DNA of 64,000 bases from a virus. Within the stretch, counting starts at the first letter, position 1. The number at the start of each line of letters is the position of its first letter. Below are positions 25,044 to 50,027 of this stretch, in pieces. The position numbers were made by a program, and so were the translations under genes. The DNA lies in the IMG/VR virus record IMGVR_UViG_3300028388_004019, positions 119,756 to 183,755 of that record; one strand, 5' to 3'. The notes under the pieces are model-generated. The model did not search any database. It was not told the origin of the DNA and saw only the letters and a list, made by a program, of their open reading frames with translations.

Positions 25044-25072
25044 ATAATAAGAAGTCTTTCTCTTCTTGTCAA
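25044..25072 (-). promoter_or_regulatory. Sigma70-type promoter of the DNA polymerase
   Basis: TTGACA-N17-TATTAT on the minus strand. Confidence 0.7.
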
Positions 25073-25422
25073 ATGATATTGATATAAAGATTTTCTCTGA
25101 TTGGTGCAATCAGTTCACCCATTGAATTGATGATTGAGAATTCACCTAAGTACCTACCTTTTCTTCTTGTGTCTCTCAAAGACCACTTATAAAAAATATA
25201 ATATTCTTTCGGAGAGTCAGGGTTTTCTTGATTTTTTTCTGTGATAAATGCATTATTCATCACAATTTTTGGTATTCCTGTTGACAGTTCCTTCATGGAA
25301 AATCTGATGGTAGCGTTATCTAAATCCGCATCGAATGTTTTCCATGAGTCTGTTCTACCATCTTTCACCACACTCATCTTGAGTATCGGTAATTCACTGT
25401 TTTGTTTTATAAAGAATTCCAT
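25069..25422 (-). CDS. BppU-like virion attachment-domain protein, paralogue of the N-terminus of 28716..32066
   Basis: MEFFIKQNSELPILK vs MEFFIKKNSTLPKLQ, and G(R)YLGEFSI vs GRFSGFFTV. The start was moved to the ATG at 25422 on the basis of this paralogy. Confidence 0.6.
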   Translation of the reverse strand: MEFFIKQNSELPILKMSVVKDGRTDSWKTFDADLDNATIRFSMKELSTGIPKIVMNNAFITEKNQENPDSPKEYYIFYKWSLRDTRRKGRYLGEFSIINSMGELIAPIRENLYINII

Positions 25423-25445
25423 GTTTATAAATATCCACATAAAGA

Positions 25446-25469
25446 AAAACCCCTCCGAAGAGGGGTTTT
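25446..25469 (-). terminator. Intrinsic terminator with a C(UUCG)G tetraloop
   Basis: Minus strand AAAACCCCUC-UUCG-GAGGGGUUUU. Confidence 0.85.
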
Positions 25470-25490
25470 ATATTTTTATTTATGTTTTGG

Positions 25491-28400
25491 TTATATCGGT
25501 TGTGGTGTCCAATCGTAACTAATTGTGATGTTACTACTTCCCATAGTAAACGTTTCTGAGTCGTTACCTGGTGATAATCCACTATTTGCGGAAATCGAAG
25601 GAACACTTTGTCCTGAGACTGAACCGATACCTTGTGTCTCACCATATATTTGACAACCTGAACCAAGTACACCTTGAGATTCAACGTAGTATATGATAGT
25701 ATCACCTTCGAATACCGTAATTGAGTCGGTACTGTCATTACCATTACCCAATGCCGTGAATGACGACCTAAGAGTACCATTGACGTAAACATTCGCACTA
25801 CCTCTAGCACACGTTGCACTTGTGTAGTTAATATTAATGGTCTTCGGTTGTGCCGACGTTGAAGGAGTTACTGTTGGTGTTCTCGTCGGTGTTCTCGTTG
25901 GTGTTGCACTTCTCGTAACCGATGGTGTCGGTGTTGGAGATGCCGGTGGTGGAGTACTCGTTGGTGTTCTCGTTGGAGTTGCCGAAGGAGTTGGTGTTGG
26001 TAATGCACAGAATGAACAAGAGTCACCGACCGCATCAATAGTGTATGTTGCGGGTTCAGGACTATCGTGAGTTGTGAGTATTTGCCAACATCCTGTCACT
26101 TCTTTAACCGATACGTAATCACCAATTGATGGTACTGAAGAGAATCCTGTTCCTAATACTGCGGTTTGTTGTTGAGCACCTGTCTGACAGTTACCATCAA
26201 CATAATTAATTTCACCAATTATGAACTTATACTCAACACACGGATATGTTTGTTGACAAACAGTACAGTTTGAATAAAGTTCCGCACCTGGATTCCAAGT
26301 TCCATTATCATTTTCAAAGACACCGTCAAGTATTCCCAAGTCAGTAACGTTGTCACCAGCATAAGAGTCACCAATGAATCCAACACAACCATCAAGGACA
26401 CCTGTTTGTCCTTTTAAGTGTAATGATGCACTTCCTTCATCAAGTGCTTGTAAAATTGCTCCGAACTGTGCACTGTTTATACTAATTCTATATACTAAAT
26501 CATCACAACACCCTGACATGTACATCGGGTAGTATACCGTTGAAGGAGTTACCGATGGTGTCACAGACGGAGTCAATGATGTTGATGGGGTAATAGTCGG
26601 TACCGGTGTTGTTGTCGGTTCTGGCGTTTCAGTAGGTGTACTCGTTTGAGTAGGACCTGGAGTACTTGTTGGTTGTGCTGTAGGAGTTACTGATGCTGTT
26701 GGTGTAACAGTTGGCGTTTCCGTTTGAGTAGGTGTCACCGATGCTGTCGGAGTTACCGAAGCTGTTGGTGTTACTGATGCTGTTGGAGTATTAGTTGGTG
26801 TTTCCGTTTGAGTAGGTGTTACTGATGATGTTGGTGTCACCGAAGCTGTTGGTGTATTAGTTGGTGTCACAGTATTACTTGGTGTAACCGAAGCTGTTGG
26901 AGTAACTGATGATGTAGGTGTGACTGATGAAGTAGGTGTATTTGTTGGTGTTACAGTATTACTTGGCGTTACTGAAGATGTTGGAGTTACTGATGCCGTC
27001 GGAGTTACCGAAGCTGTTGGAGTATTGGTTGGTGTTGGTGATTGAGTTGGTGTATTCGTTGGTGTTCTTGACAATGACACTGTTGGTGTAACTGTCTGAG
27101 TAGGAGTATTTGTTGCCGTAACTGTTGGTGTTACCGATGAAGTTACGGATGGCGTTGGAGTATTTGATGCGGTGACCGTAGCGGTAACGGTAGGGGTAAC
27201 TGATGCGGTCACTGTTGCCGTTATAGTTGCTGTCGGTGTCAACGTTGATTGTGGTGTTGTAGACGGTGTTACAGATTGAGTCGGTGTATTTGTTGGTGTT
27301 GAAGTTGCGGTGTTTGTTGGTGTCACAGATGGTGTAACAGAAATCGTTGGTGTTACAGACGCTGTAGTTGTTGGTGTAAATGAAACCGTTGGTGTTGGCG
27401 TTTGAGATACACCAGGCGTATCCGATACTGTTGGTGAAGGAGTATTTGTCGGTGTGAATGATATTGTCGGAGTAACAGTGGCTGTTGGAGTTACCGTTGA
27501 AGTTGAGGTTACTGAAGGGGTTGGTGTACTTGTAGAAGTTGACTGAGGAGTTGCCGTCGGAGTTGGAGTTGTAGTAGACTGTGGTGTTTGTGTAGGTGTA
27601 ACTGTAGATGTAACCGTAGACGTAGGAGTAGGTGTTGAAGTACCACCAGGTGTTTGTGTTGGTGTACTTGTAGATGTAGAGGCGGGTGTTGATGACGGTG
27701 TCACTGAACTCGTTGGTGTTGGTGTCGATGTCCCAGCAGGTGTACTGCTTGGAGTAACTGACGATGTCACTGTCGGTGTAAATGATACTGTCGGTGTTGG
27801 TGTAGCACTTGAACCAGGCGTATTCGATACTGAAACTGTTGGAGTAACAGTTGTCGTGACAGTTGGAGTATTTGATTGTGTCGGAGTATTCGTTGGTGTG
27901 GATTGAGGTGTTGACGAAACAGTCACAGAAGCGGTTGGTGTAGGTGTAGATGTTCCACCTGGTGTTTGTGTAGGAGTGTTTGTAGGCGTTGAAGTGGCAG
28001 TATTCGAAGGTGTGACTGAAGTTGTAGGTGTATTAGTTGGGGTAACATCAGGAGTAGTAGAAATAGTTGGGGTTGGAGTTGCACTAGCACCTGGAGTGTC
28101 AGAGACTGATACTGTTGGGGTGTTTGTCGGTGTTACCGCAGCAGTACCTGTTGGACTCGCAGTGACCGTGGCTGTTGGTGTACCCGTTGATTGTGGTGTT
28201 GATGTTGGTGTAGAAGTTGTTGTTGATGTTGGTGTCGATACTGGAGTTCCTGTTGGACTAGCGGTTACCGTGGCAGTTGGTGTACTCGTAGACTGAGGTG
28301 TTGATGTTGGTGTTCTCGTTGGAGATACTGTTTGAGTAATAGTCGCAGTTAACGATGGAGTCACCGTAGATGTTATCGTGGCAGTTATAGACGGAGTTAC

Positions 28401-28667
28401 GGATGGTGTATTTGACGGAGTAATAGTAGGTGTTACGGTCTGAGTTTGTGTAGGTGTTGGTGTTGGTTGAGCTATAACATACGTATACGATGCTTCATAT
28501 TTTTCAGAGTAAATCGTATATGTTCCATAGAAATAGTTAGTTTCTAAATCTGCGGGCATAACCACAGTACCAAAGTCTGTAACTGTTGAGCCCGTATCTG
28601 CCGTGAATGTAATGTGAACATTTTCACCACTCAGGTTTTCACTAATAAATCTAATTCCTTCTGCCAT
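25491..28667 (-). CDS. Mucin-like Thr/Pro/Ser-rich virion protein with Cys-rich C-terminal domains
   Basis: About 640 aa of TPT/TPS repeats, a second shorter tract, and Cys-rich globular segments. Confidence 0.8.
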
Positions 28668-28715
28668 CGTATATAAATACTTTGTTATTAAATAATGTTA
28701 TTTTTTTTATACATA

Positions 28716-31700
28716 TTATGTGAATCTTGGTAATGTTGCATTGTAGTTAGATAATACCTGTGCCGCCGTCAATGAGATATTATATAGTCTAACAATAGAG
28801 TATCTACCTGCGAACATACCCGTGTTATCAGCACCTGGGTTTTGTTGGCCTAAGAATATGAAATTATCTACATTACTTGATAAATAAGATATACCCCCTT
28901 GAGAATCATTCAATGTTCCATTCACATATAAAGATTGAGTTCTATTAGGGAAGTCCCAAACTAATACAACTTGATACCATAGTCCTTGAGTAAATGTGTT
29001 GTCGGACGTTAATAAATTATTATCCCATATTTTAGCATTAAATCTACCACTAGATGCCGATATTGGTGGCATGTTCCAAGCGGTTTGAGGATTTTCCGAA
29101 GACATTGACATTATATTACCATCATTATCTAAAGGATTTACCCATAGTTCATAAGTGAATGATTGATTTGCAGTACCTGTCCCTGGTACTCTTCCAATCA
29201 ATATATAATCGTTAGACCCGTCAGTTTGTATTGAACCTTGGAACTCAGAATTATAAGTTGGTCCATTTATCAATGTACCGTTATTATTACCCTGTAAATC
29301 TGTCCAAACCGTCCCTGTACCCGCATAAGAATCTTCATTACCCGCGTCCAAATTAACAATTAGATTGTTTACAAATGGTGGTGTTGGTGATGGTGTTACT
29401 GTTCTTGTTGGTGATGGAGTTATTGATGATGTTGGTGTTGGTGTTGAAGTTGCTTGTGGTGTTCTTGTTGGTGTGGGTGTTGGACTCTCCGCGAATGGTG
29501 TTGCCGTGAAGTCCATTGTTGGTGCTGGTGTGTCTGTAGGTGTAACCGATTGTGTCGGTGTAAATGTAGGGGTAACCGTAGAAGTGACTGATGGGGTTAT
29601 TGTTGATGTAACTGTCGGAGTTACTGTCGATTCAGGCGTATTAGTGACGGTCACCGTGGGTGTCACACTTGAAGTTAAAGAAGGTGTTACCGTTTGTGTT
29701 GGTGTAACACTTGAGGTTACAGATGGAGTAACACTCAATGTAATTGATGGTGTCGGAGTATTAGTTGGTGTAACAGACGGAGTGATACTTGGTGTGAGTG
29801 AAGCGGTTACTGTTTGTGTCGGTGTACTCGTTGGTGTAACACCCGGTGTTTCTGATTGGGTAACCGTTGGTGTCACCGTAGATGTTACCGTCGGAGTAAT
29901 AGTACTGGTTGGTGTTATCGTTTGAGTTGGAGTGTTAGTTGGGGTAACAGACGAGGTTACCGATGCGGTTACAGTTTGTGTTGGGGTGTTCGTAGCAGTT
30001 ACTGTTGGTGTCACTGAAGCAGTTACTGATGGAGTAACCGTTTGAGTTGGGGTATTAGTAGGTGTTAATGTTGGTGTGATAGATGCGGTTACTGTTTGAG
30101 TTGGTGTATTCGTTGCAGTCACTGTTGGTGTTACGGATGAAGTCACTGAAGGAGTGACAGTCTGAGTTGGCGTATTAGTTTGTGTGATAGTTGGGGTAAT
30201 CGATGCAGTTACCGTCTGAGTAGGAGTGTTAGTGGTAGTTACCGTTGGTGTTACTGATGACGTTACCGAAGGAGTGACAGTTTGAGTAGGTGTGTTTGTC
30301 GGTGTAACAGATGCGGTTACCGACGAGGTCACTGTTTGAGTCGGCGTATTCGTTGCAGTTACTGTTGGAGTTACCGACGAAGTAACTGACGGTGTAGGTG
30401 TTTGAGTATTTGAAGGAGTTACGGTCTGTGTTGGAGTGTTCGTTGGGGTAACACTCGGTGTTGGTGTGTTTGTCGGAGTTTTAGAAATTGTCAACGTAGG
30501 TTGTGGTGTATTAGTGACCGAAGGAGTTACCGTTTCTCTCGGTGTTCTCGTTGGTGATGGTGTTAATGTTGGTGTTGGGGTATTTGTTGCACTACCAATA
30601 GGTGTTGCCGTTAAGTCCGAAGTCGGGGCAGGTGTACTTGAAACACTTGGAGTTACAGTACCAATAGGTGTCGCAGTTAAATCAACTGTTGGTGCTGGTG
30701 TGTCTGTAGGTTGAGGGGTATTTGTTGGTGTATAAGTTACAGACGGAGTAACAGTTGATTCAGGGGTATTTGTTGGTGTTGGTGTCTGACTAACACCTGG
30801 AGTATCAGAAACAGAAACAGACGGAGTCACTGTATTTGTTGGTGTGACACTACTTGTCGGTGTCACTGTTGAGGTAGGTGTGATTGTTGGGCTTGGACTA
30901 ATATCTGGTGTGATTGTCGGTTGTGGAGTGTTAGTGACAGAAGCAGTGACTGTTGGTGTTACTGATGAAGTATTTGTCGGTGTCGGAGTATTACTTGAAG
31001 TATTTGTAGGAGTATTTGTTGGTGTTACTGTTGAAGTTACACTAGGTGTCGGTGATAAAGTACTTGTTGGTGTATTAGTAGGTGTTACTGTTGAACTAAC
31101 TGAAACTGTAGGTGTCACAGTAGTTGTTTGCGTAACCGCAGGTGTCGATGTTGGTGACGATGTCTGTGTAACAGAAGGTGTAACCGTAGACGTTGGACTA
31201 TTTGTTACCGAAACAGTTGGGGTAACAGTTGAGGTTGGACTTGGAGTTGTACTCACAGAGATAGTCGGAGTCACAGTCATCGTAGGTGTTTGTGTAGGTG
31301 TCGGTGTGTTAGATGACGCTGGTGTAGAAGATGGTGTTGGAGAAGGACTAGCGGTTGGTGTCGGTGTTAATGTAGTCTCGAACTCAAACTTAGGCTCAAC
31401 AACAAATCTAAATTCCGGTGATACAGTTTCAGTATCCACCTTAATATCTTTATAGAAACTACTTCCCTGTACTAAGTTATAGTCTCTATTTGTACGTGTA
31501 ATATAAGTCCCAACTTTTTCTCCCTTAAGGATTTTCAGAATGATATTATTCACAATGTCATTACCATCAGACATGGTAATTGTGTTAGTGAATTTAATTT
31601 CAACTTCAGTATCAACAGGGAATTCGGATGTTGCGGTGTATTTAGAAACCACAGAACCGTCAGTATATTCAGCTGTAAGAGAAATAAAGTTTGTTCTTTT

Positions 31701-32066: not shown

Positions 32067-32069
32067 CTA

Positions 32070-34094: not shown

Positions 34095-34147
34095 TCCCTT
34101 TTTTATGATAAATACTTTCTTTGTGGTATTTATAGTTAAAAAGTAAT

Positions 34148-34846
34148 ATGATTAAGTCCGATATCTTTAGAAAAGAGAAAGCTGCTTTATCAAAAGCCAA
34201 GGAATTGGGTTGTGAAGGTACTCACAAACACGATGGTGGTTTCATGCCTTGTAAGTCTCACAAAAAGTGGGAAGAACTTACGTCAAACGTAGATGGGGAG
34301 ATTGATGAGTTGGTAGATTTCGATGGTACAATGAACAGTTCAAAGATTCCAATCGTTGACCCTCATGTTTCACCTAAGAAAACAACCGACCAAACTGTGG
34401 CAGCCACAAGAACGGCACAAGACCCTTACGCTTTAGGTTTCAGAAGATACGTAGGTGAAGAAGACATGTCAGGAGCCTTCGGTTGGGAAGAGACTGAAGA
34501 TATGGGATTTGAAGATACAATCAAATACTTGGAAGATGAATTAGGTGTAGACAACGCCGAAGAAAGAGCTGAAGAAATGGGTAAGGACCCAAAGTTAGAA
34601 AAGAAAAAAACTGACGGAGCCTTCACAAGAATGAGACTTCAGGAAAAAGAAAAAATGTTCACCAAAGAACAAATAATGAAAATGAAAGAAGATTTATTGG
34701 TAGATAAAGATGCCGATAATGACATCAGACCATCAGACGAATCTGTTTCAAAAATCATTATGAGAAATATTAAGGCACTCAAGAAATTGGCTAATAAAGA
34801 AGGTATTAGTGTAAAACAACTTTCAAAATTATTGAATAATGAATAG
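34148..34846 (+). CDS. Hypothetical acidic protein with an N-terminal C/H motif
   Basis: GCEGTHKHDGGFMPCKSH; preceded by TATTTATA. Confidence 0.7.
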   Translation: MIKSDIFRKEKAALSKAKELGCEGTHKHDGGFMPCKSHKKWEELTSNVDGEIDELVDFDGTMNSSKIPIVDPHVSPKKTTDQTVAATRTAQDPYALGFRRYVGEEDMSGAFGWEETEDMGFEDTIKYLEDELGVDNAEERAEEMGKDPKLEKKKTDGAFTRMRLQEKEKMFTKEQIMKMKEDLLVDKDADNDIRPSDESVSKIIMRNIKALKKLANKEGISVKQLSKLLNNE

Positions 34847-35294
34847 TAACTTATATGATAGAAAGGCAAAATTACCTAAAACACTAATCAAACACTTAGA
34901 AGAGTGTGGTGGTATGGTAGAAGCAGACTCAAACACTGAAGGTTTCAATAGAAACAAAGAATTGAGAGAGTCAGGTGTTGTTACTTACCAACAAATCAAA
35001 AGAATCAAAAACTTCTTTGATAACTTTGAAGGTAATAAGGAAGATGCTCCTTTCATATTAAATGGTGGTGACCGCATGAACAAATGGTGTAACCACGTTT
35101 TGGACCACTGGCGAGCGGTAGATAAAGGTGGAAAGAAAAGAAAAGCCGATGGGGGAATGGAAAATCAATTTATCGATAACCATGAAAAAGATGGTATCAC
35201 TATGAACCCACATGATAAACATGAAAGAGGAATAAATAAATTTGATACTTCTATACAAGAAAGTATTACAAAAAGATTCAAAAGATTAATATAA
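34839..35294 (+). CDS. Hypothetical protein
   Basis: ORF overlapping its neighbours in an operon. Confidence 0.7.
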   Translation: MNSNLYDRKAKLPKTLIKHLEECGGMVEADSNTEGFNRNKELRESGVVTYQQIKRIKNFFDNFEGNKEDAPFILNGGDRMNKWCNHVLDHWRAVDKGGKKRKADGGMENQFIDNHEKDGITMNPHDKHERGINKFDTSIQESITKRFKRLI

Positions 35295-35295
35295 A

Positions 35296-35592
35296 ATGGC
35301 TGAACAAAATGACAAGTTAGATTTCTCACAACCAAAAAACTCTTTGAGTGAGATTGCTGATAGAGAAAGAGGAAGACTTTTTCCTCGTAACGACTATTCA
35401 CCTGTTTCTGATAAGTATTCTGCGGAACATCCTAATGCAATGGCTGACGGTGACGATGAAGGTAGAGGAACAGGTTCATTCTTGGATGTACATAATTTCG
35501 GTGCCGGAACTACTACTGACATCAATGAAAGAAACGATGACATCAAAATCAATAAATACAACTATAAGAACGGTTATAAAGTAGAAGAATAA
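35296..35592 (+). CDS. Hypothetical protein
   Basis: ORF tightly packed in an operon. Confidence 0.65.
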   Translation: MAEQNDKLDFSQPKNSLSEIADRERGRLFPRNDYSPVSDKYSAEHPNAMADGDDEGRGTGSFLDVHNFGAGTTTDINERNDDIKINKYNYKNGYKVEE

Positions 35593-35987
35593 TGAGACTA
35601 CAAGAAACCCTTAGAAGTGTTCTTTTAGAAGTGGCATCGATGGATGACATTCAAAGAGCAATTAAACAAAAACAGGTTGCCACCATTTTCTACGATGGTG
35701 ACGAACCTGGTGGTCGTGGTCTCAGGACCGTAGAACCAGTATGTTTGGGTTTCTCAAAAGCAGGTAACAGAGTAGTCAGAGTATGGGACATGGAAGGTGC
35801 TTCCCACACCGCCAGAACAGGTGAACAACCTCTACCAGGATGGAGATTGATGAGGTTAGATAAGATTATGACATTCAAACCTACAGGTGAAAACTTTACA
35901 ACTCCACGACCAGGCTATAACTTTAATGGTGATAAGAGCATGACAAGAGTCATAATCAACGCACAATTTGATAACAACAATGAATAA
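35592..35987 (+). CDS. Stand-alone WYL-domain protein
   Basis: IFYDG...RTVEPVCLG...VRVWD...GWRLMRLDKI. Confidence 0.7.
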   Translation: MRLQETLRSVLLEVASMDDIQRAIKQKQVATIFYDGDEPGGRGLRTVEPVCLGFSKAGNRVVRVWDMEGASHTARTGEQPLPGWRLMRLDKIMTFKPTGENFTTPRPGYNFNGDKSMTRVIINAQFDNNNE

Positions 35988-36579
35988 CGATTTAATGCAA
36001 AAATTAGCGATGTCCAAGAAAATTATGGACGCGTCAGATAGAATCAAGCCGGGACAGGCACAAGGTGGTCTTCCCATGACAGAGAATATTAATGCCACAT
36101 ATAATATCCCTCAGGATATGATGCAACAACCAGTTCCTCAACAACCACCACAACAAATGGTACAGGCACAACAGACGTCTCAACCACAACCAGTAACTGA
36201 AAGTAAAATTCAAAATTCTAAGTTACCTGATGAAATAAAACAATTGATGATGGAACACCCTATTCAACAACCAGCTTTCGGTGGTGGTAGTGGTACAGTT
36301 CTTTCAGATGATGTTATCGAAGGAGCACAGAGACTGATGGGGAACACTCCTAAACAACCTGTAACGGAAAATGTTTCTATACCGACAACAAACAACTCAG
36401 ATTTGAAACAAATGATTCGTGACGTTGTTAGAGATACTGTTAGGGATGTAGTCAGAGAAGAATTACAAAGTGCTGGAATGATTATGGAAGGTAATACAAA
36501 AACCAACGAATCATTACAACTTAGAGTGGGTAAACACGTATTCGAAGGTAAGGTTACAAAAATTAAGAAAGTAAAATAA
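35980..36579 (+). CDS. Hypothetical Gln/Pro-rich protein
   Basis: ORF; likely start is the ATG at 35980. Confidence 0.7.
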   Translation: MNNDLMQKLAMSKKIMDASDRIKPGQAQGGLPMTENINATYNIPQDMMQQPVPQQPPQQMVQAQQTSQPQPVTESKIQNSKLPDEIKQLMMEHPIQQPAFGGGSGTVLSDDVIEGAQRLMGNTPKQPVTENVSIPTTNNSDLKQMIRDVVRDTVRDVVREELQSAGMIMEGNTKTNESLQLRVGKHVFEGKVTKIKKVK

Positions 36580-36634
36580 CCACCCCCTTTTCTTATTACT
36601 GATTTTATCTTATACTTTTAACAAAATTGAAAGT

Positions 36635-37852: not shown

Positions 37853-38469
37853 TAGATAAACGATTTACATATGATAGGTATTTACAATGGGATGGAAAAA
37901 CATTTCAAATTTCGGCATATGAAAATGAAAATTATATTTACGTACCGATACCAAAATGTGGTTCAACAACTATGAATAAAAGATTAAATTTAAAATCACC
38001 ATTTTATCCAAGAATCGATATTATGGATTTAAAGAATAAAAATAAATTTAAATTTACATTTGTCAGAAATCCATATGCTAGGTTATTAAGTTGTTGGAAC
38101 GGAAAAATTAAAAATAGATTAGGTAGTCAAATAACTAAAATGGAAGGTTTCAATTATGATATGTCTTTTAATGAGTTTGTCAGAAAAGTATATTTAACAC
38201 CAGATTATTTATGTGACCAACATTTTGCACCAATAACAACTATTGTTGAGGATTTATCATTTGATTTTATTGGTAAATTAGAAAATTTTGAAGAAGATTA
38301 TGTTAAATTACAAAAAAAAATAAATTTACCAAATGCTACACAAAAATTGGCAATGACCAATGTAGGTAAAAAATATGAAAGTTACTTTACAACGGAACTA
38401 TACGAATTAGTGAACGAAAAATATGATAAAGATTTTAAGAAATTCAATTATAAAAAAATATTAAAATGA
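37849..38469 (+). CDS. Sulfotransferase family 2 (carbohydrate sulfotransferase-like)
   Basis: 5'-PSB motif IPKCGSTT, 3'-PB motif FVRNPYARLLS, HFAP, FIGKLE. Confidence 0.85.
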   Translation: MIDKRFTYDRYLQWDGKTFQISAYENENYIYVPIPKCGSTTMNKRLNLKSPFYPRIDIMDLKNKNKFKFTFVRNPYARLLSCWNGKIKNRLGSQITKMEGFNYDMSFNEFVRKVYLTPDYLCDQHFAPITTIVEDLSFDFIGKLENFEEDYVKLQKKINLPNATQKLAMTNVGKKYESYFTTELYELVNEKYDKDFKKFNYKKILK

Positions 38470-39167
38470 TAAACGCACCGAAGACAAAACTATTATTTTT
38501 TGACTTAGAAACTGTTGGTATTGAACAGGACTTCAAGACATTGAAAAAGAACAAACCCGAACTTGCAAAATTGTTTGAGTCCTACCAAGGTTGGTTATTA
38601 AAACGATACCCTGAAGAGGAAGGTAATTCCATCGAAGAAATGTTTTATAACAAGGCGGCCCTTATTCCTGAGTTCGCAAAAATTATAGTGGCGTCTTTTG
38701 CCTTTTATGCTCCCGATGGGAAAATACACAAACAAACATTCTCTTCAGATGAAGAGATAGAAGTATTAACGGAAATTAAAAACCTACTCACCAAAGTGGG
38801 TAAATTGGATTTCTTCCTTTGTGGACACAATATTAAAAACTTTGACATCCCAATGATTGGTAAACGAATGATTATCAATGGGATGAAACCACCATCACTT
38901 ATCCCACAATACGACACAAAACCGTGGGACATCAAAGCAGTGGATACAATGGAGATTTGGAAGTTTGGAAACAACTTCTCAATGGCATCATTGGAACTTA
39001 TGTGTGTTTCCATGGGTGTTTCATCACCTAAAGAAGGAGAGGTAACAGGAAACATCGTACATCAAACATATTGGGAGACCGAAGCGTTGGACCCAATCGC
39101 TACATATTGTGAAGAAGATGTTGATGTATTGGCAAAATTAATGGATAAAATTTATAACTTAGTATAA
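38466..39167 (+). CDS. PolB-related 3'-5' exonuclease
   Basis: FFDLET, GHNIKNFDIP, YCEEDV (DEDD-type). Confidence 0.8.
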   Translation: MINAPKTKLLFFDLETVGIEQDFKTLKKNKPELAKLFESYQGWLLKRYPEEEGNSIEEMFYNKAALIPEFAKIIVASFAFYAPDGKIHKQTFSSDEEIEVLTEIKNLLTKVGKLDFFLCGHNIKNFDIPMIGKRMIINGMKPPSLIPQYDTKPWDIKAVDTMEIWKFGNNFSMASLELMCVSMGVSSPKEGEVTGNIVHQTYWETEALDPIATYCEEDVDVLAKLMDKIYNLV

Positions 39168-39769
39168 TGGGAAAATTTAAGGATATGACAGAGGGTCTCA
39201 AGATGTTGAAAGACCTACAAAAGAATTTGGGTGGTATGAGTAATATGACTGACCCACAAGAAATGTTGAATTCATTAGGTTTGGACATGGACCAATTAAA
39301 TGAGCAGTTTATTCAACAAACCACACCTCAAACTACATTGAGATATTCATATAAATCAGTAAATAAAGAACCTGAATATGCGTACCCAACAGATTCAGGA
39401 TTTGATTTGAGGGCAAATGAGAAAGTCACATTGGAACCTTTAGATAGATTTTTGATTTCTACAGGATTATTTTTGGATATCCCTGAAGGTTATGAAATAC
39501 AAGTTAGACCTAAGAGCGGTTTAGCAATCAACAAAGGTATTTCTGTACTAAATACTCCCGGCACTGTTGATGAGGGTTATACAGGTGAGATTAAAGTTGT
39601 AGTAATAAATCTCAGTAATAAATCACACACTGTTGAAGTTGGTGATAAAATTGCTCAAGCGGTTTTGACACCAGTAATGGCGGGTAAGTTTGTTAATTTA
39701 CAAAGAGTACTAAATGTGGATGATAAAGACCGTGGAGATAACGGATTCGGCTCAACAGGTACACGATGA
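39167..39769 (+). CDS. dut: Trimeric dUTPase with an N-terminal extension
   Basis: SGFDL, KSGLA, GTVDEGYTGEI, IAQ, RGDNGFGSTG. Confidence 0.92.
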   Translation: MGKFKDMTEGLKMLKDLQKNLGGMSNMTDPQEMLNSLGLDMDQLNEQFIQQTTPQTTLRYSYKSVNKEPEYAYPTDSGFDLRANEKVTLEPLDRFLISTGLFLDIPEGYEIQVRPKSGLAINKGISVLNTPGTVDEGYTGEIKVVVINLSNKSHTVEVGDKIAQAVLTPVMAGKFVNLQRVLNVDDKDRGDNGFGSTGTR

Positions 39770-42237: not shown

Positions 42238-42243
42238 AGTAAA

Positions 42244-42891
42244 ATGGCAAACGGAATTTACAAAGTAACAGAAGAATTTGAAGAAAAATTAAGTCATTAT
42301 ACAGGGGCTAAGTATGTGGTAACCGTTGATAATATGAGTAATGCGTTGTTTTTATCACTTTATTATGAACATCATATTAAAAATAATACCAGTGAATATA
42401 TTACTATACCTAACAGAACTTATCCGTCAGTACCTTGTGAAATAATACACGCAGGTTTAAAAGTAAATTTTCGTAAGGTAAAGGGTAAAACATTAAAAGG
42501 TGCTTATCAACTCGAGGGGTCTAATGTTTGGGACTCAGCATTAACTTTTACCTCCGATATGTACATTCCCAAAACACACATGTGTATATCATTTACGGGC
42601 CCATATAAACATTTTAAACTTTCTAAAGGTGGTGCAATTTTGACAGATGATAAAGAGGCATATAGATGGTTTAAAAGAGCTAGATATAGTGGAAGAAGGG
42701 AGTGTTCATATTTTGAAGATAATTTTGATATGTTAGGTTGGAACTTTTATATGATGCCTGAATTGTCTGCACGAGGATTATTACTTATGAATCAATTTTA
42801 CAATAGAGACGGAAGTAAAATAAACAATGAAGATTTAGAATTACCTTACCCTGATTTAAGTAAATTTAAAATATACAAATCAAATAAATAA
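42244..42891 (+). CDS. DegT/DnrJ-family PLP sugar aminotransferase (short)
   Basis: TYPSVP, WDSA, SFTGPYK, GGAILTDD, GWNFYM. Confidence 0.8.
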   Translation: MANGIYKVTEEFEEKLSHYTGAKYVVTVDNMSNALFLSLYYEHHIKNNTSEYITIPNRTYPSVPCEIIHAGLKVNFRKVKGKTLKGAYQLEGSNVWDSALTFTSDMYIPKTHMCISFTGPYKHFKLSKGGAILTDDKEAYRWFKRARYSGRRECSYFEDNFDMLGWNFYMMPELSARGLLLMNQFYNRDGSKINNEDLELPYPDLSKFKIYKSNK

Positions 42892-42892
42892 T

Positions 42893-43726
42893 ATGATTTA
42901 TAAACACCCAATTTTTATAATATCAAACCCGAGGTCAGGGAGTTCTATTTTCAGAATTATACTTAACCACTCTAATAATACTATTTTCCCACCCGAATGT
43001 GGTTTTATACAATGGTTACATCAGTTCTACAAAGATTGGGATAACTCCCGTATCTCAGAGTTTACAACAGATGTTATAAATTCAAAAAAAATGGAAGGAT
43101 GGTTTTTAAATGAAGAAGAAATAAAAAACTATCTAATTAACCTCAACCCACAATCATATGCCGAGGCTTGTTTTTATGTGTATGAGTTTTACGGAAAAAA
43201 ATTAGGTAAAGATGTTAAAATATGGGGTGATAAAAATAACTACTACATTCAACACCTGGATGATATTTTTGAAATTTATCCTGAAGCTAAATTTATTTGG
43301 TTAAGAAGAGATAGTAGAGATGTTTGTGCATCATATCTTAATTTATCTAAAATATCTGATGAAATCAAATATAAACCTTCAGTACCAAAAGATGTGAATG
43401 ATATTATGAATAGTCTTTATGAAAATAAAGAAATTATTTCTAATTTTTTCTCAAATTTAAATGATAAAAATAAATTAATAATTAATTTTGAAGATTTTAT
43501 TATTCAAGACGAACAAACACTACAAAACTTACAGGATTTTACAGGGATAAATATAAATGAATGTATTATCAACTTTAATAATAAATTATATTATGATGAA
43601 CCAAATATAACTTTACCATGGAAAGAAAAAACCAAAGAAGATTTAGATTCAAATTATATTATGACATATAAAAGACACAAAAAATCTCAAGAAATTTTCA
43701 ACACATATAAAAATTATAATTGGTAA
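42893..43726 (+). CDS. Sulfotransferase (family 3-like)
   Basis: PIFIISNPRSGSS, WGDKN, LRRDSRDVCAS, FEDF. Confidence 0.8.
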   Translation: MIYKHPIFIISNPRSGSSIFRIILNHSNNTIFPPECGFIQWLHQFYKDWDNSRISEFTTDVINSKKMEGWFLNEEEIKNYLINLNPQSYAEACFYVYEFYGKKLGKDVKIWGDKNNYYIQHLDDIFEIYPEAKFIWLRRDSRDVCASYLNLSKISDEIKYKPSVPKDVNDIMNSLYENKEIISNFFSNLNDKNKLIINFEDFIIQDEQTLQNLQDFTGININECIINFNNKLYYDEPNITLPWKEKTKEDLDSNYIMTYKRHKKSQEIFNTYKNYNW

Positions 43727-43730
43727 AATT

Positions 43731-44492
43731 ATGTATCTTGAAATAAACCAAAGTATAGACCAAACAATTGATTTAATAAAAAATAGTATATATAGTGGGA
43801 CACCACTTTCTATTTCACGATTTGGTGACGGCGAAATTTATTTACTAAATCGTAACTCACCCGATTCACATAAAATTAGAAAATGTAAAGATTGGGATTA
43901 TAAATATCCTGAAGAAGTAAATGAGATGTATGATGACGCCAATAATATCCTCATCAAAAGCCTTAAAAATAGTGATATCATTTCTATAATGGATAAAAAT
44001 AATATAATATCAAAAAGAATAGGATTTAGTAATGAAAGGTGGTCAATTTCAAAAGAACTATTATTAAAAAATGGTATTAATCCTGAACAATTAAAAGTAA
44101 CTGACCACATGCTTGCCAGAGATGTAAAATTTGGAAAACCCGAAAATTTTAAAAATATTATTCAGGGTAAAAGTTTAAATATAATAAGTCCAAACACTGA
44201 AGAATTAAAAACAAAAAATTTAGAAACCTTATTGGACTGTGAAGTAACATATACAAATCACCCATTTAGTATAAACTTTAAAAATAGACATGAATTTGTT
44301 GATAATTTGAAAAATATAAAGTCAGATGTAGTACTCGTGGGGACCGGTAACATAAAAGACTATGTTAGTATATTATCAAAACAATATGGTAAAGTAGCCA
44401 TAGATGTTGGGGCAATGTTAGATGCTTGGGCAGGTATAAAAAGTAGACCGTGGTTTAAAAAAGGAGGTCATCAAAATCATTTACTACTGTGA
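43731..44492 (+). CDS. GT-D fold (DUF1792-like) glycosyltransferase
   Basis: SISRFGDGE signature and AIDVG. Confidence 0.6.
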   Translation: MYLEINQSIDQTIDLIKNSIYSGTPLSISRFGDGEIYLLNRNSPDSHKIRKCKDWDYKYPEEVNEMYDDANNILIKSLKNSDIISIMDKNNIISKRIGFSNERWSISKELLLKNGINPEQLKVTDHMLARDVKFGKPENFKNIIQGKSLNIISPNTEELKTKNLETLLDCEVTYTNHPFSINFKNRHEFVDNLKNIKSDVVLVGTGNIKDYVSILSKQYGKVAIDVGAMLDAWAGIKSRPWFKKGGHQNHLLL

Positions 44493-44524
44493 TTTAAATA
44501 CCATACTTAAAACAAATCTAAATA

Positions 44525-45349
44525 ATGAAAAAAATTGTTGGAATTATTGGTAATGGATTTGTCGGTGAATCTCAAGCGTTTGCTTTTTCACCAACAAACG
44601 AAATTAGAATTTATGATGTTGACCAATTGAGGTCAACACACACAAAAGAAGAGACACATGAGTCAGATTTCATATTTGTTTGTGTACCAACACCAATGGA
44701 TATGGGTGGTAAACAGGACTTATCATATATAGAAAATGTATTCAAGGATTCTAAAGAAGGTCCGATTTACATTATAAAATCTACGGTATTACCAGGCACA
44801 ACAGAAATGTTACAAAGACAATATCCTCACCTTAACATTATATTCTCACCTGAGTTCTTGACTGAGAGGACTGCAAAATTGGATATGTTGACACAGGCAA
44901 GAGTAATCTTTGGTGGTGATAAGGACTTAACAAATAAAGTTGAAGAATTATTCTCTGAACGATTTATGAATAGACATTTCATCCATACAGACTCTAAAAC
45001 TGCCGAGTTTATAAAATATATGAATAATACTTTCTTTGCTACTAAAGTTTCATTGATGAATGAATACTATAGACTTTCTCAGTTAGTTGATGTCAATTGG
45101 GACGATGCACTATATGGATTTACCTCAGATGGAAGAGTTGGCGACTCTCACTTACATGTTCCTGGTCCTGATGGCAAAGTAGGTTTCGGAGGTACTTGTT
45201 TCCCTAAAGATATCAATGCCCTTATCAACATGTCTAAGGAAGTGGGAGTCAATATGAATGTATTGGAAGCCGCTTGGAAAACAAACTTGGAAGTTAGACC
45301 TGAACAAGACTGGTCGACTCTAAAAGGACGTGCAGTATCCGACAAGTAG
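44525..45349 (+). CDS. ugd: UDP-glucose/GDP-mannose dehydrogenase family (lacks the C-terminal domain)
   Basis: GNGFVG, CVPTP, KSTVLPG, SPEFL, GFGGTCFPKD. Confidence 0.85.
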   Translation: MKKIVGIIGNGFVGESQAFAFSPTNEIRIYDVDQLRSTHTKEETHESDFIFVCVPTPMDMGGKQDLSYIENVFKDSKEGPIYIIKSTVLPGTTEMLQRQYPHLNIIFSPEFLTERTAKLDMLTQARVIFGGDKDLTNKVEELFSERFMNRHFIHTDSKTAEFIKYMNNTFFATKVSLMNEYYRLSQLVDVNWDDALYGFTSDGRVGDSHLHVPGPDGKVGFGGTCFPKDINALINMSKEVGVNMNVLEAAWKTNLEVRPEQDWSTLKGRAVSDK

Positions 45350-45412
45350 TAATACTTACTTTATAATAAAAGTTCGTATTATATATACTAAGTTAAAACT
45401 AAAATATAGTTA

Positions 45413-46123
45413 ATGGCAACAAAAGGTAGAAAAGGAGATTTCAACCCTAAGAAATCAAGAAAAGAAATAATCAGGGAAATAATCGGGAAGACCCCAAGAA
45501 AGAAGTTTCTTTCTGAAAGTCAAAAGGAATATTATAATATTCTCACAAACAACGAAATTACGATTTGTACGGGACCAGCGGGTGTCGGTAAATCATATGT
45601 GGCAATGAGTGCTGCGGTTCAACTACTACTCGATGAGAGTAACTCTTATGAGAAAATAATTATCGTAAGACCAGCAGTTGAAGCTGAAGAAAAACTCGGT
45701 GCATTACCAGGTAACTTGGAGGAAAAATTAGACCCTTATATTTTTCCATCATATTACCTGTTAAATAAAATTATTGGGAAAGAAGCTAGAGAAAAATTAA
45801 AAGAATATGATGTGATTGAGGTATTTGCTTTGGCTTATATGCGAGGTATGAATATTGATAACTCAATATTAATTTTTGAGGAGGCACAAAATTCAACACC
45901 ATCACAAATGAAACTATTGTTGACAAGAATCGGATTCAACTCTAAATTCTTTATATCTGGTGATATCGAACAAACGGACCGTTATAAAGATAAGACACAA
46001 TCAGGTTTATATGATGCAATGAATAAATTTAGTGATTTGGATGAGGTAGGTACTTATGATTTCAAAAATGAAGACATCATTAGAAATCCAATCATCAGTA
46101 AAATATTAAAGAAATACGAATGA
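45413..46123 (+). CDS. phoH: PhoH-family ATPase
   Basis: GPAGVGKS, RPAVE, YMRG, EEAQN, GDIEQTD. Confidence 0.92.
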   Translation: MATKGRKGDFNPKKSRKEIIREIIGKTPRKKFLSESQKEYYNILTNNEITICTGPAGVGKSYVAMSAAVQLLLDESNSYEKIIIVRPAVEAEEKLGALPGNLEEKLDPYIFPSYYLLNKIIGKEAREKLKEYDVIEVFALAYMRGMNIDNSILIFEEAQNSTPSQMKLLLTRIGFNSKFFISGDIEQTDRYKDKTQSGLYDAMNKFSDLDEVGTYDFKNEDIIRNPIISKILKKYE

Positions 46124-46719
46124 AAATAGCATTTGAAGTTAATGGTGTATTGAGAAATACTTTTGGTAAAGCTGAAGAGGTTTATCAAAAGTTTTTCATT
46201 GATGACTATGTACTGGGTGAAGATGAAGAAGAGTTTGATTATAAACTTAATCTTCCAATTACATCCACAACCTTGAGTGACCATTTTGTTTTTCCTGATG
46301 AAGAAAGACTAATGGAATTCTTTTATGTGGATTTCCCTATGAACATTTTTGGTCATTCTCAATCAACAGAAAACTCAACATTTCATGACTTGAACGACAT
46401 TTATAAAGATTTAAGAGATGACCATGAATTAGTCATTGTTTCTAATGAGATTGAAAAATCTAAACCTGCAACTTTATTCTTCTTATCTAAGTTTGGTTGT
46501 ATGTTTGAGAAAATAATCTTTTATAACCAATATACGGAAGATGAAATCCTTTCTCAATTTGATTTGATTATATCGACACAACCTCAAATTATAGAAAAGG
46601 ATTATAACTATAAAACTGTAAAATATAAAACCACATATAATGAAGAAGTCTCTTCTGATTTCGAAATAGAAACCTTAAAAGAGTTCAAAGATTTATATGA
46701 AAAACTTAATTTGACATGA
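46120..46719 (+). CDS. HAD-fold protein with a degenerate catalytic motif
   Basis: IAFEVNGVLR in place of DxDG. Confidence 0.5.
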   Translation: MKIAFEVNGVLRNTFGKAEEVYQKFFIDDYVLGEDEEEFDYKLNLPITSTTLSDHFVFPDEERLMEFFYVDFPMNIFGHSQSTENSTFHDLNDIYKDLRDDHELVIVSNEIEKSKPATLFFLSKFGCMFEKIIFYNQYTEDEILSQFDLIISTQPQIIEKDYNYKTVKYKTTYNEEVSSDFEIETLKEFKDLYEKLNLT

Positions 46720-47000
46720 TAGAATTTTTAGGACAAATGTATTACATCGATATGGATACACTCGAAAACTTCGTAGAGTTAAAAGACTTCAAACCATCAG
46801 AGGAAGAAGATAAAGACCACCAACATTTTTCAATAATCAAATTCGAACTTTTGAAGATGATGATTGAAGTTGTACTAACTGAAAGAGTTGACGACATGGA
46901 CGACAATTTAGGGCTACATAATGCTAAGAGTACAAGTATTCCCTTTCGTATTGCATTTAATACATTATTAAGACATAACATTATTAAATATTTTGACTAA
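46716..47000 (+). CDS. Hypothetical protein
   Basis: ORF overlapping its neighbours in an operon. Confidence 0.7.
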   Translation: MIEFLGQMYYIDMDTLENFVELKDFKPSEEEDKDHQHFSIIKFELLKMMIEVVLTERVDDMDDNLGLHNAKSTSIPFRIAFNTLLRHNIIKYFD

Positions 47001-48067
47001 TGGACCAAGATACAATTAAAAAAGTAGAACTTTCAATTCAGAAATTGGAAGAAAAAACATCGAGAATTTACCTTATGGTACAAGATACTAAGGGTAATGC
47101 AAAAGCCGGTATCCGTTTGGTTTACCAAATGGCTTTAACCTTAAAAAATAACGGATATAATCCAATCATCTTACACGAATCAAATGATTATACAGGTGTA
47201 AGTGAATGGATGGGTGAAGAATATATGGAATTACCTCACCAATCAATTGAAGGTCAAAACCTACAAATCTCACCTGAAGATTTTGTCATAGTTCCTGAAT
47301 TATATGGACACGTGATGGAACAAATTAAAAACCTACCTTGTGGGAAGATTGTAATGTGTCAAGCGTATGACTATATGCTTGAAACTATTCAGCCAGGTGT
47401 AAATTGGGCAATGAATGGATTTTTGAAAGGAATTACAACCAACGAAACTCAAAAGGAATATATCCAAAGTATTATGAAAAACACCTCTTTAGACGTGATT
47501 ACTCCTTTTATTCCTGAAATCTTTACGAAAAAAACTATTCCTGCAAAACCAATTATTGGAATTCATACACGTGACCAAAGAGATACCGCTAAGATTATCA
47601 AATCTTTCTATTTGAAGTACCCTCAATTTAGATGGGTAACGTTCCGTGATATGAGAGGTCTATCACAAAAAGAATTTGTTGAAAACCTACAGGAATCTTT
47701 TGTTTCAGTGTGGGTTGACGATATTAGTGGATTCGGTACCTTCCCAATTGAGAGTATGGCTTGTGGGACACCCGTAATTGGAAAAGTTCCAAACATGAAA
47801 CCTGAATGGATGTCAGACACTAACGGTGTATGGACATATGAACTAAATAACATGGTTGATATTATTGCAGAATATACACAAAATTGGTTGGAAGATAATA
47901 TCTCAGAACAACTTTATGATGGTGGTTTGGAAACCGCATCAACATATCAAAATAAAGAAGATTTTGAATCACAGGTTATTTCAACTTTCGATTCTTACTT
48001 ATCAATTCGTAAACAAAATTTTGAAACTCAATTAGAGAGATTAACAATAACAGAAGAAACAGAATAA
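47000..48067 (+). CDS. Glycosyltransferase, GT-B-like
   Basis: DFVIVPE, GFGTFPIESMACGTPVIG. Confidence 0.8.
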   Translation: MDQDTIKKVELSIQKLEEKTSRIYLMVQDTKGNAKAGIRLVYQMALTLKNNGYNPIILHESNDYTGVSEWMGEEYMELPHQSIEGQNLQISPEDFVIVPELYGHVMEQIKNLPCGKIVMCQAYDYMLETIQPGVNWAMNGFLKGITTNETQKEYIQSIMKNTSLDVITPFIPEIFTKKTIPAKPIIGIHTRDQRDTAKIIKSFYLKYPQFRWVTFRDMRGLSQKEFVENLQESFVSVWVDDISGFGTFPIESMACGTPVIGKVPNMKPEWMSDTNGVWTYELNNMVDIIAEYTQNWLEDNISEQLYDGGLETASTYQNKEDFESQVISTFDSYLSIRKQNFETQLERLTITEETE

Positions 48068-48069
48068 TT

Positions 48070-48867
48070 ATGAAAGATATTTCAGTAATTCTCCCAGTCG
48101 AGAGTTCAAAACACAAGAATTTTACTGAGTTGTTTACCAACTCAATCGTATCAATTATAAACCAATCAGTACAACCTAAAGAAGTTGTTTTGGTCCACAC
48201 AAATGAAGAATCATTAGTTTCTTATTTGAATGATTTTGACTTCAGTGGTTTGACAGTAAATATGGTTGAAAACAAAGGAAATTCAGATTTCGCATCACAG
48301 ATGAATTTAGGTGTTGAAAACGCAACATCTGAATGGGTTTCATTCTTAGAATTTGATGACGAGTACGCATCGATTTGGTTCAAGAATGTGCAAGAATATA
48401 TTACTGCACACTCTGATGTCAAAGCATTCTTGTCATTGGTTGTTGATGTTGACGATAAAGGTACATTTGCTGGTTTCACAAACGAAGCAACATTTGCAGC
48501 GTCGATGAATAGTGAAATCGGTTATCTAACAAATGAAGTGTTACTTGATTACCAAAACTTTCAAACTGCAGGTATGGTTGTCAGAAAAGATATATACCAA
48601 GAATTAGGAGGTTTTAAACCATCAATCAAATTAACATTTGTTTATGAATTCTTGCTTCGTTTGACTTACAATTCTACAAAAATTATGACCATACCACGTA
48701 TTGGTTACAAACACCTTAACATGAGAGAAGGGTCTATCTTTTGGAATTATAAGAATGGTGAAAACTCAGTCACAGAAGATGAAGTCAAGTTTTGGTTAGA
48801 ATCCGCAAAAAAAGAACATTTCTTCACTGAAGACAGAAATATAAAATACGAACCTGAGAATGTTTAA
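48070..48867 (+). CDS. Glycosyltransferase family 2
   Basis: ISVILPV, NLGVENA, FLEFDD, YEFLLRL. Confidence 0.8.
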   Translation: MKDISVILPVESSKHKNFTELFTNSIVSIINQSVQPKEVVLVHTNEESLVSYLNDFDFSGLTVNMVENKGNSDFASQMNLGVENATSEWVSFLEFDDEYASIWFKNVQEYITAHSDVKAFLSLVVDVDDKGTFAGFTNEATFAASMNSEIGYLTNEVLLDYQNFQTAGMVVRKDIYQELGGFKPSIKLTFVYEFLLRLTYNSTKIMTIPRIGYKHLNMREGSIFWNYKNGENSVTEDEVKFWLESAKKEHFFTEDRNIKYEPENV

Positions 48868-49622: not shown

Positions 49623-49649
49623 AATTTGTTCCAAAGATATTTATAAGTA

Positions 49650-50027
49650 ATGGGACGACCGAAGAAAAAAGAAATATCATTAAATAAAGATTCTGTACTG
49701 AGTCTGATGCAGGAAATCTACAATGAACTTGTGGAACAGAGAGCTACTGCTGTTAGAATCCAAAATAAGATGTTGGCAATGTTGAAAGACCCTAAAGACA
49801 TGACTGTCATCGGTCCAGTAATCAAAGAACAACAAAAGATTATTAATGATACTATCGAAAAGAAGTTATCACTTTCAAAACTTCAATCCACCATTTGGGA
49901 AAAATCCAATAATACATCGGAAGAATCATTCAATATATCTGACATGGATGATGATGTCCTATCCGCTCTCATAGAAAAAGACTCTGACAATACTAAAGGA
50001 AACTCTGAAGGGTATAAATTAGAATAA
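49650..50027 (+). CDS. Hypothetical helical protein
   Basis: ORF 4 nt after a TATTTATA motif. Confidence 0.7.
   Translation: MGRPKKKEISLNKDSVLSLMQEIYNELVEQRATAVRIQNKMLAMLKDPKDMTVIGPVIKEQQKIINDTIEKKLSLSKLQSTIWEKSNNTSEESFNISDMDDDVLSALIEKDSDNTKGNSEGYKLE

Follow-up and report, generated by a model that had tools for sequence, protein, structure and literature searches.

What does a large phage do with a dense array of glycosyltransferase (GT), sulfotransferase and sugar-modifying genes that lies next to genes for two very long threonine- and proline-rich proteins? The question is raised by the viral contig IMGVR_UViG_3300028388_004019 of the IMG/VR database, of which we analysed a window of 64,000 nucleotides (positions 119,756 to 183,755 of the record). 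This window is the final 64 kb of a single 183,755-bp contig, which is estimated to be ~60% complete. The two sets of genes lie at 25069-48867 of the window, to which the coordinates below refer unless stated otherwise. Judged from the sequence data, the best-supported answer, to which we give about an even chance, is that this island of enzymes coats the phage's own fibres with a custom glycan. An earlier note on the same DNA had proposed such a phage-made fibre glycan. The proposal gained support from the solubility of the enzymes, a divergent pair of promoter-like motifs, a block that joins a GT60-type enzyme, Thr/Pro-rich genes and the island in most relatives, and the predicted anchor fold of one of the two long proteins; on the other side, no GT that primes protein was recognised within 25069-48867.

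This myovirus encodes a major capsid protein of the T4 type, sheath and baseplate proteins, a family-B DNA polymerase (PolB), PhoH and a dUTPase. Its PolB is at most ~25% identical to those of cultured phages. We obtained 456 PolB relatives from IMG/VR, among them two near-complete contigs, G001 (297 kb) and G002 (326 kb), which were used as the complete relatives, and mapped the window proteins onto 138 related loci. The proteins of G001 are 87–88% identical to those of this phage, and DNA near-identical to the window was found in marine plankton metagenomes. In the best explanation, the clade of roughly 300-kb T4-like aquatic phages to which this phage belongs has a virion-decoration supercluster in common, two halves of which lie in the window. 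By description, the phage resembles the "moraphages", a 200–307 kb aquatic jumbo phage lineage in which four core orthologous groups are putative GTs and for which Flavobacteriia hosts are predicted (PMC12619734); size, habitat, T4-like structural genes and the core PolB, PhoH and dUTPase agree. In a word search, neither "threonine" nor "sulfotransferase" was found in the text of that paper, which cites virion glycosylation in mycobacteriophages.

The candidate acceptors are encoded on the minus strand. In TP1 (25491-28667, 1058 aa), a short N-terminal domain is followed by a stalk, a Cys-rich domain separates the stalk from a second tract, and a C-terminal domain ends the protein; the Thr/Pro/Ser tracts of TP1 span residues 58–722 (665 aa) and 876–953 (78 aa). 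TP2 (28716-32066, 1116 aa) consists of an Ig-like (immunoglobulin-like) BppU-type anchor at residues 1–114, a CC motif, a small domain, a stalk with a tract at residues 219–907 (689 aa) and a Laminin_G_3 tip. These dimensions bear out the earlier description of two proteins of ~1100 aa with tracts of more than 600 aa each. The tracts contain 36–38% T, 18% P, 14–15% S and 9–11% V. The Bacteroidota O-glycosylation sequon, D-(S/T)-(A/I/L/M/T/V), had been reported missing from them, and indeed there was none in the 1432 tract residues of TP1 and TP2, where only DTP and one DSC were present. This sequon is beside the point, because that O-glycosylation system works in the periplasm.

Several features suggest that these proteins belong to the virion. 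The tip of TP2 (residues 949–1104) matches Laminin_G_3, a concanavalin A (ConA)-like lectin family, and also phrog_8510, a family of virion structural proteins. For its predicted Ig-like head (residues 1–114), four of the six best structural matches were phage baseplate proteins (Z 8.9, 8.7, 8.3 and 8.2); the best were from the baseplates of phages 80alpha and TP901-1 (Z 8.9 and 8.7), and the BppU N-terminal domain of TP901-1 was among the four. This head has no Pfam match, and its resemblance to a baseplate anchor is supportive and not decisive, because unrelated Ig domains score almost equally (Z 8.6). The same module, as seen by alignment with the N-terminus of TP2, stands alone as the 117-aa protein sm123 (25072..25422, minus strand), which adjoins PolB in all relatives and has a homologue in 76 loci. 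The true start of its reading frame, earlier read as 25069-25440, is at 25422. Short forms of this module, of 126–135 aa and ending in the CC motif, also exist. The fibre operon begins with P3 (32070-34094, minus strand), a conserved 674-aa Cys-rich protein with a homologue in 70 loci. P3 probably has a ConA-like lectin domain, as suggested by an ESM Atlas feature match to Laminin_G_3 clusters (0.94–0.95), which we use as a lead only. Searches of Pfam and PHROGs gave no match for TP1, P3, the N-terminus of TP2 or the small conserved open reading frames (ORFs). We infer that TP1 and TP2 are located on the virion and that TP1, TP2 and P3 are fibre- or adhesin-like. A homologue of TP1 with 70% identity is present in the 297-kb relative, and Thr/Pro tracts sum to 5151 aa in the present contig. 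Thr/Pro-tract proteins were found in four out of four relatives examined. A co-occurrence of such genes with GT loci had been suggested as a check; every relative examined has both, and the check is hence uninformative within the clade.

The enzymes are encoded on the plus strand, divergently from P3. The array is headed by five small conserved genes (34148..36579; the DUF3721 protein, o151, o98, o131 and o203). The first GT gene, GT4a (36635-37852), follows at a distance of 4.57 kb from the start of TP2; this agrees with the ~4.5 kb given earlier, and all the enzymes that had been named were found. GT4a is a GT-B/GT4-type enzyme with a weak Pfam match (E 0.0077), a match to phrog_7162 (E 1.7e-45) and a GT-B model with a predicted local distance difference test (pLDDT) score of 85. 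It has at least 7997 homologues in the databases. Its top folds, GlgM, MshA, HepE and PglA, indicate a generic GT4 only, and the fold search gave no signature of a protein-O-GT or a DNA-GT. Sequence searches of the PDB with four of the GTs returned nothing useful. Downstream lie the Sulfotransfer_2 protein ST2 (37849-38469; Pfam E 6.9e-17), a DEDD 3'-5' exonuclease and the dUTPase (38466..39769), and a fusion gene (39766-42237) whose product has an N-terminal Glyco_tranf_2_5 (GT2) domain, a middle GT4 domain and a C-terminal PS_pyruv_trans domain. These are followed by a DegT-like aminotransferase of 215 aa (42244-42891), the Sulfotransfer_3 protein ST3 (42893-43726, assigned by a Pfam match) and a GT-D-like GT (43731-44492; PF22882, 54.7 bits with a cut-off of 27). 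The last of these scored 45 bits with NCBIfam GT-D_rel, below the cut-off of 75, and E 6e-4 with the SP_1767 family. A nucleotide-sugar dehydrogenase (44525-45349, 274 aa) matches TIGR03026 (E 6.6e-51) over positions 67–295 of 413 and is without the C-terminal, nucleotide-sugar-binding domain. PhoH, o199 and o94 (45413..47000) precede the last two GTs, GT1b (47000-48067; GT-B type, Glycos_transf_1, GT4-like) and GT2b (48070-48867; Glycos_transf_2). All the genes from the DUF3721 gene to GT2b lie on the plus strand.

We observed that none of the island proteins has a hydrophobic segment (0 in every case), and that the 579 cassette proteins taken from 56 relatives have at most one each. As all of the enzymes are soluble, their action must take place in the cytoplasm, which is the site of virion protein synthesis. 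No protein with more than five hydrophobic segments was found in the two complete relatives (297 and 326 kb), and therefore these genomes have no priming transferase, flippase, polymerase or ligase.

The last result bears on remodelling of the host envelope, a rival explanation in which the soluble enzymes would modify lipid-linked intermediates of the host O-antigen, capsule or exopolysaccharide at the inner face of the membrane. The altered surface might, for example, block superinfection or stop the loss of progeny on debris, and the cassette would vary as host glycans vary. Modification of the host O-chain is the published reading, given without a test, of the GT-rich hypervariable islands in aquatic T4-like myophages (PMC7029224). 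The enzyme families here are those of bacterial polysaccharide loci, which also match in that a hypervariable centre, with genes for GTs and sugar synthesis, lies between conserved flanks; GTs that serve such pathways in the cytoplasm can do without membrane segments and could use host intermediates. The island, moreover, is retained in loci that lack the adjacent Thr/Pro genes. However, the two complete genomes encode no membrane component of such a pathway (initiating phosphoglycosyl transferase, Wzx/Wzy or ABC exporter), and five conserved GT domains together with sugar-nucleotide synthesis resemble de novo assembly and not a tweak of an existing glycan. The altered units would also have to pass the host flippase and polymerase inside one lytic cycle, and the tight, conserved linkage of the island to the fibre operon, GT60 and the Thr/Pro genes would be left without a role. 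We consider host remodelling unlikely, though by no means negligible.

Comparison of the related loci divided the island into a conserved frame and a hypervariable cassette. The left frame has the order P3 | DUF3721, four small ORFs, GT4a, exonuclease, dUTPase and GT2_5-GT4 fusion. The cassette comes next, and the right frame consists of PhoH, which with o199 and o94 forms the conserved border of the cassette, the two small ORFs, GT1b, GT2b and more conserved genes. The frame carries four conserved GT proteins with five GT domains. The cassette ranges from 4 to >14 genes, and the 579 cassette proteins, taken from 56 loci, fell into 154 clusters at 35% identity. A Pfam census of these proteins yielded methyltransferases of the FkbM, TylF and CmcI types as well as GDP-mannose dehydratases, RmlD-type reductases, epimerases, DegT, hexapeptide acetyltransferases, sugar dehydrogenases, GT2 and GT10. 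The boundary of the frame runs through the fusion gene: its first ~545 aa belong to the frame and the pyruvyltransferase domain is accessory. In most relatives the protein ends at ~545 aa, and the C-terminal part is retained only in L081, L082 and L136. One relative, L056 (IMGVR_UViG_3300047380_000774), is without the GT2_5-GT4 fusion and the whole cassette; its dUTPase gene abuts PhoH, and the adjacent slot has no Thr/Pro gene.

The glycan had been proposed to be sulfated and pyruvylated. In this phage, ST2 matches PF03567 with 62.8 bits (cut-off 22) and ST3 matches PF13469 with 89.9 bits (cut-off 27). Their motifs, P35-KCGSTT and R73-NPYARLLS in ST2 and P13-RSGSS and RRDSRDVCAS in ST3, are what we take to be the 5'-phosphosulfate loop and the 3'-phosphate motif for binding of 3'-phosphoadenosine 5'-phosphosulfate (PAPS). 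The pyruvyltransferase domain of the fusion matches PF04230 with 40.7 bits (cut-off 25.3), covering only profile positions 125–277 of 280. Few relatives carry ST2, ST3, the GT-D-like enzyme or the pyruvyltransferase domain. ST2 is missing at its site in the mapped relatives, and the only ST2-like protein among all the loci is a distant one in the L136 cassette (29% identity). DNA contigs of two other marine samples join 37845 to 38463 and skip ST2, which is therefore an indel polymorphism of wild populations. Further contigs, with lengths of 96 to ~297 kb, carry homologues of ST3 with 54–58% identity. In the divergent relative L264, a free-standing pyruvyltransferase of 266 aa, a DegT-like protein, ST3 and GT-D are in the same order as here, with identities of 41, 81, 58 and 62%, respectively, against only 38–51% for the frame proteins. 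The retention of this order beside a diverged frame indicates that pyruvyltransferase-DegT-ST3-GT-D is a mobile functional module. Sulfation and pyruvylation are thus strain-level accessory chemistry, and the claim that they are a property of the system is not supported. In the closest relative, L082, a gene for a PglD-like N-acetyltransferase (L082:14313-14897) directly follows the DegT-like gene, where ST3 (42893-43726) sits in the present phage. This arrangement hints that sulfate may take the place of acetate on the same amino sugar.

The starter enzyme missing from the island is likely a GT60-type polypeptide N-acetylglucosamine (GlcNAc)-transferase predicted elsewhere in the genome. Its gene (PF11397, E 1.2e-56) lies at 72806-74074 on the minus strand of the whole contig, outside the window and ~83 kb upstream. 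Both complete relatives have a PF11397 match, which reaches 230.9 bits (cut-off 21) in the 297-kb relative. In the 326-kb genome, the GT60 operon occupies the slot of TP1 and TP2; it stands after P3 and two Thr/Pro-rich genes and before sm123-PolB, contiguous with the island. We examined 80 GT60 loci. In 59 of them the operon is located between P3 or Thr/Pro genes and sm123-PolB, again contiguous with the island, and five are arranged as in the present genome. A Thr/Pro-tract protein was found within 10 kb of GT60 in 72 of the 80 loci. Protist members of GT60, which are polypeptide alpha-GlcNAc-transferases, act on mucin-type acceptors. The Thr/Pro-rich acceptors proposed for the phage resemble these; the phage enzyme lies outside the window, with its activity and acceptor predicted only. 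Besides GT60, the operon encodes a carbamoyltransferase and an FkbM-HtrL fusion. In L189-L195 and other GT60 loci, a variable block of 2–8 genes separates the GT60 gene from the conserved FkbM-HtrL fusion. This block of the GT60 operon thus gives the clade a second variable glycan cassette, separate from that of the island.

The promoter-like motifs were compared for the two sides of the locus. The late-type motif TATTTATA was found 5 nt before the start of TP1 (28672-28679) and 4 nt before sm123 (25426-25433), and the same motif precedes the sheath, baseplate, neck and other morphogenesis genes of the window. The earlier note had placed a late-type motif before both long proteins, which is correct for TP1; TP2 lacks such a motif and starts 3 nt after P3, which is itself preceded by TATTTATC 13 nt upstream. 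The divergent control region between P3 and the plus-strand operon (34095..34147, 53 bp) contains ATAAATA for P3 on the minus strand (34108-34114) and TATTTATA for the plus-strand operon (34127-34134). This back-to-back ATAAATA/TATTTAT pair is kept in 27 of the 29 distinct P3|DUF3721 intergenic regions of relatives (47–60 bp), in which the neighbouring bases vary. As to spacing, only 4–5 nt separate TATTTATA from the ATG start codons of sm123, TP1 and the gene at 49650 (motif at 49638-49645), compared with 13–17 nt for most other genes, and the transcripts of these three genes may be leaderless or nearly so. At 40527-42042, contigs of two marine metatranscriptome libraries match the fusion GT gene with 1–2 mismatches per 219–274 bases. 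These matches are compatible with expression of the fusion gene, of which they are not proof, and are uninformative on transcription, timing and start sites.

Taken as glycosylation of the phage's own fibres, the mechanism would run as follows. In the cytoplasm of the infected cell, the GT60-type enzyme would prime Thr/Ser residues of the stalks and the soluble GTs would elongate the chain. The cassette would then add strain-specific sugars and decorations, which in this phage may be an amino sugar, a uronic acid, sulfate from host PAPS and a pyruvate ketal from phosphoenolpyruvate (PEP). The fibres would end up covered with an anionic brush of glycans.

A number of observations weigh against this scheme, and we set them out together with the rivals on which some of them bear. 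With respect to the chemistry, a sulfate-activation gene was not found in the 184-kb contig. A protein of 145–152 aa resembling adenosine 5'-phosphosulfate (APS) kinase (P-loop, DGD-x-LR, VSLVSPY) is present in four relatives, including G001:254913-255371, G002:261021-461 and G003:19820-20257, and not in this contig; we did not count it for sulfation, because it also occurs in genomes without sulfotransferases. The DegT-like and dehydrogenase proteins are shorter than their families. The short form of the dehydrogenase recurs in the close relatives L082 and L085 (272–277 aa), other relatives having a full enzyme of 385 aa; as the short forms of both proteins are kept in relatives, they are not debris. 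With respect to control, the 20 co-directional plus-strand genes are tightly packed and the late-type motif stands before the first of them only. The first GT gene, GT4a, is preceded by a different, gene-specific element, TTCTTAT-N12-13-TTATACTT (36589..36618, plus strand), 17 nt upstream. Since the late motif occurs once and GT4a has this other element, it is plausible only that enzymes and fibres are expressed together late in infection. The element is kept in ~45 relatives, with one copy per genome in three genomes, and might act as a promoter for this one gene or as an RNA element. Assignment of a temporal class through its other occurrences is ruled out, as it is unique in each genome.

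With respect to the acceptor, the island is core to the clade and TP1 and TP2 are accessory. Between P3 and sm123-PolB, the content of the slot varies: we found 19 distinct configurations, of which nine have a Thr/Pro tract of at least 100 residues and 10 have none. The island frame is visible in seven of the 10 tract-free configurations, these being the ones whose flank reaches the frame. L132 and L133 have identical cassettes and differ in the length of TP2. The locus is accordingly not dedicated to the two fibres, as the earlier view had it. Furthermore, since the GT60 operon brings its own tailoring genes, the island may build a second glycan on another acceptor. In the rival explanation that follows from this, the GT60 operon alone would decorate the stalks and the island glycan would be placed on P3, the capsid, the sheath or other fibres. 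The variable tailoring genes in the GT60 operon of the relatives, with their carbamoyltransferase and methyltransferase set, speak for such a division, as does the position of P3, which is always adjacent to the island and divergently paired with it. On the other hand, no GT that primes protein was recognised in the island, GT4a having a generic GT4 fold, and the neighbouring conserved proteins show no other conspicuous acceptor-like tracts. We regard a different virion acceptor as improbable, but as a rival to be taken seriously.

The remaining difficulty is that a DEDD exonuclease, dUTPase and PhoH are interleaved with the enzymes; the exonuclease and dUTPase have no evident role in glycan synthesis. 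In addition, the Phapecoctavirus homologues of GT4a belong to an array of four GTs beside primase and polymerase genes. In Escherichia phage ESCO13 (L183, NC_047770.1, 105097-108241), for instance, two GT4a homologues are among four annotated GTs, beside primase/helicase and DNA polymerase genes. We know of no reported function for the Phapecoctavirus array. These neighbourhoods would suit hypermodification of DNA, in which the GTs act on a modified base of the genome as a protection from restriction, and an arms race with host nucleases diversifies the cassette. Coliphage GT4a homologues do lie beside replication genes, and the island here adjoins PolB as well as holding the exonuclease and dUTPase. 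Diverse phage GT clusters are known to place mono- to trisaccharides or polyarabinose on 5-hydroxymethylcytosine or 5-hydroxycytosine (5hmC/5hoC) (10.1101/2023.12.21.572611; PMC13326640). Yet the sole thymidylate synthase homologue (one PF00303 match per complete relative) is canonical, with PCH, LGLPFNIASY and Asn instead of Asp, and the complete relatives therefore have no dCMP hydroxymethylase or hydroxylase. A search for a Tet/JBP dioxygenase (PF12851) gave no match, a weak argument since the control of the search matched nowhere either. Seven or more GT domains, combined with sulfation, pyruvylation, methylation and the synthesis of deoxy and amino sugars, go far beyond the known DNA glycans and would add negative charge to the packaged DNA. 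We consider modification of DNA very improbable.

If the enzymes do coat the phage's own fibres, a bolder proposal can be made, namely that this very abundant clade of aquatic phages shows serotype-like diversity on its particles. A swappable cassette would write methylated, aminated, sulfated or pyruvylated glycans on mucin-like fibres, under diversifying selection through interaction with the host. The glycans might, for example, bait the glycan-binding uptake machinery of Flavobacteriia or shield the particle from proteases, grazers or defences that recognise glycans. In this extended form we find the proposal decidedly improbable.

Virion glycosylation by virus-encoded enzymes is already established for giant viruses and a few mycobacteriophages. 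The nearest of the well-studied analogues is fibril glycosylation in the Megavirinae (Mimivirus, Moumouvirus, Megavirus and Cotonvirus), whose clade-specific clusters of 6–33 genes include pyruvyltransferases, multi-GT proteins and sulfate-modification enzymes, and whose fibrils carry pyruvylated GlcNAc, as shown by nuclear magnetic resonance (NMR) (PMC10117803, PMC8456856). Both systems combine cytoplasmic sugar-nucleotide genes and GTs, variable content, a pyruvyltransferase, multi-GT proteins, aminotransferases and, in some clades, sulfate enzymes. The Megavirinae products decorate fibrils on the particle surface and their glycans have been solved by NMR, whereas the system of this phage is known from genes alone. 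The Megavirinae also differ in being giant viruses that infect eukaryotes and in having fibril acceptors of the GMC-oxidoreductase type and not Thr/Pro stalks, and a sequence relationship was seen only at the level of shared enzyme superfamilies. The pelagimyophage and cyanomyophage islands (PMC7029224) are likewise large and hypervariable, belong to aquatic T4-like phages and contain fibre genes with many GTs and sugar-nucleotide enzymes; those islands are located between VrlC and gp14, whereas the present one lies beside PolB and has a conserved frame and a linkage to GT60 and Thr/Pro genes.

Two further systems resemble the proposed scheme in acting in the cytoplasm. The soluble GTs of mycobacteriophages Che8, Corndog and Myrna, together with methyltransferases, reportedly glycosylate the phages' own structural proteins there, as Freeman and colleagues are said to have described in 2023. 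Phage-encoded soluble cytoplasmic GTs would be the common element. The mycobacteriophage genes form small operons in the structural module, and the acceptors are C-terminal extensions of capsid or tail-tube subunits; a hypervariable cassette, sulfotransferase, pyruvyltransferase or mucin-like stalk is not known there. In the serine-rich-repeat adhesins of Gram-positive cocci, glycosylation is started by GtfA/GtfB and continued by the GT-D enzyme dGT1 and by GT2/GT8 extenders. This stepwise O-glycosylation of a long stalk by soluble cytoplasmic enzymes, with a GT-D-fold extender and variable accessory GTs, is similar to what we propose; the GtfA/GtfB pair was not recognised here, and the stalk is of Thr/Pro type and not of Ser-rich dipeptide repeats.

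If glycosylation of the fibres holds true, virion glycosylation would turn out to be frequent and very diverse in a group of large aquatic phages that is among the most widespread. The "lipopolysaccharide (LPS) genes" of marine T4-like phages, now taken as modifiers of the host surface or as auxiliary metabolic genes, would have to be reread. An anionic, sulfated or pyruvylated brush on stalks of ~700 residues would affect adsorption, stickiness, decay and aggregation in seawater. The locus also offers a defined test set, made up of GT60, the four frame GTs and one stalk fragment.

Apart from the island and the fibre operon, we noted a gene at 19214-20755 (plus strand), between a helicase gene and a 370-aa gene, which is preceded by a late-type motif and encodes an Fe/Mn superoxide dismutase domain fused to ~270 more residues.

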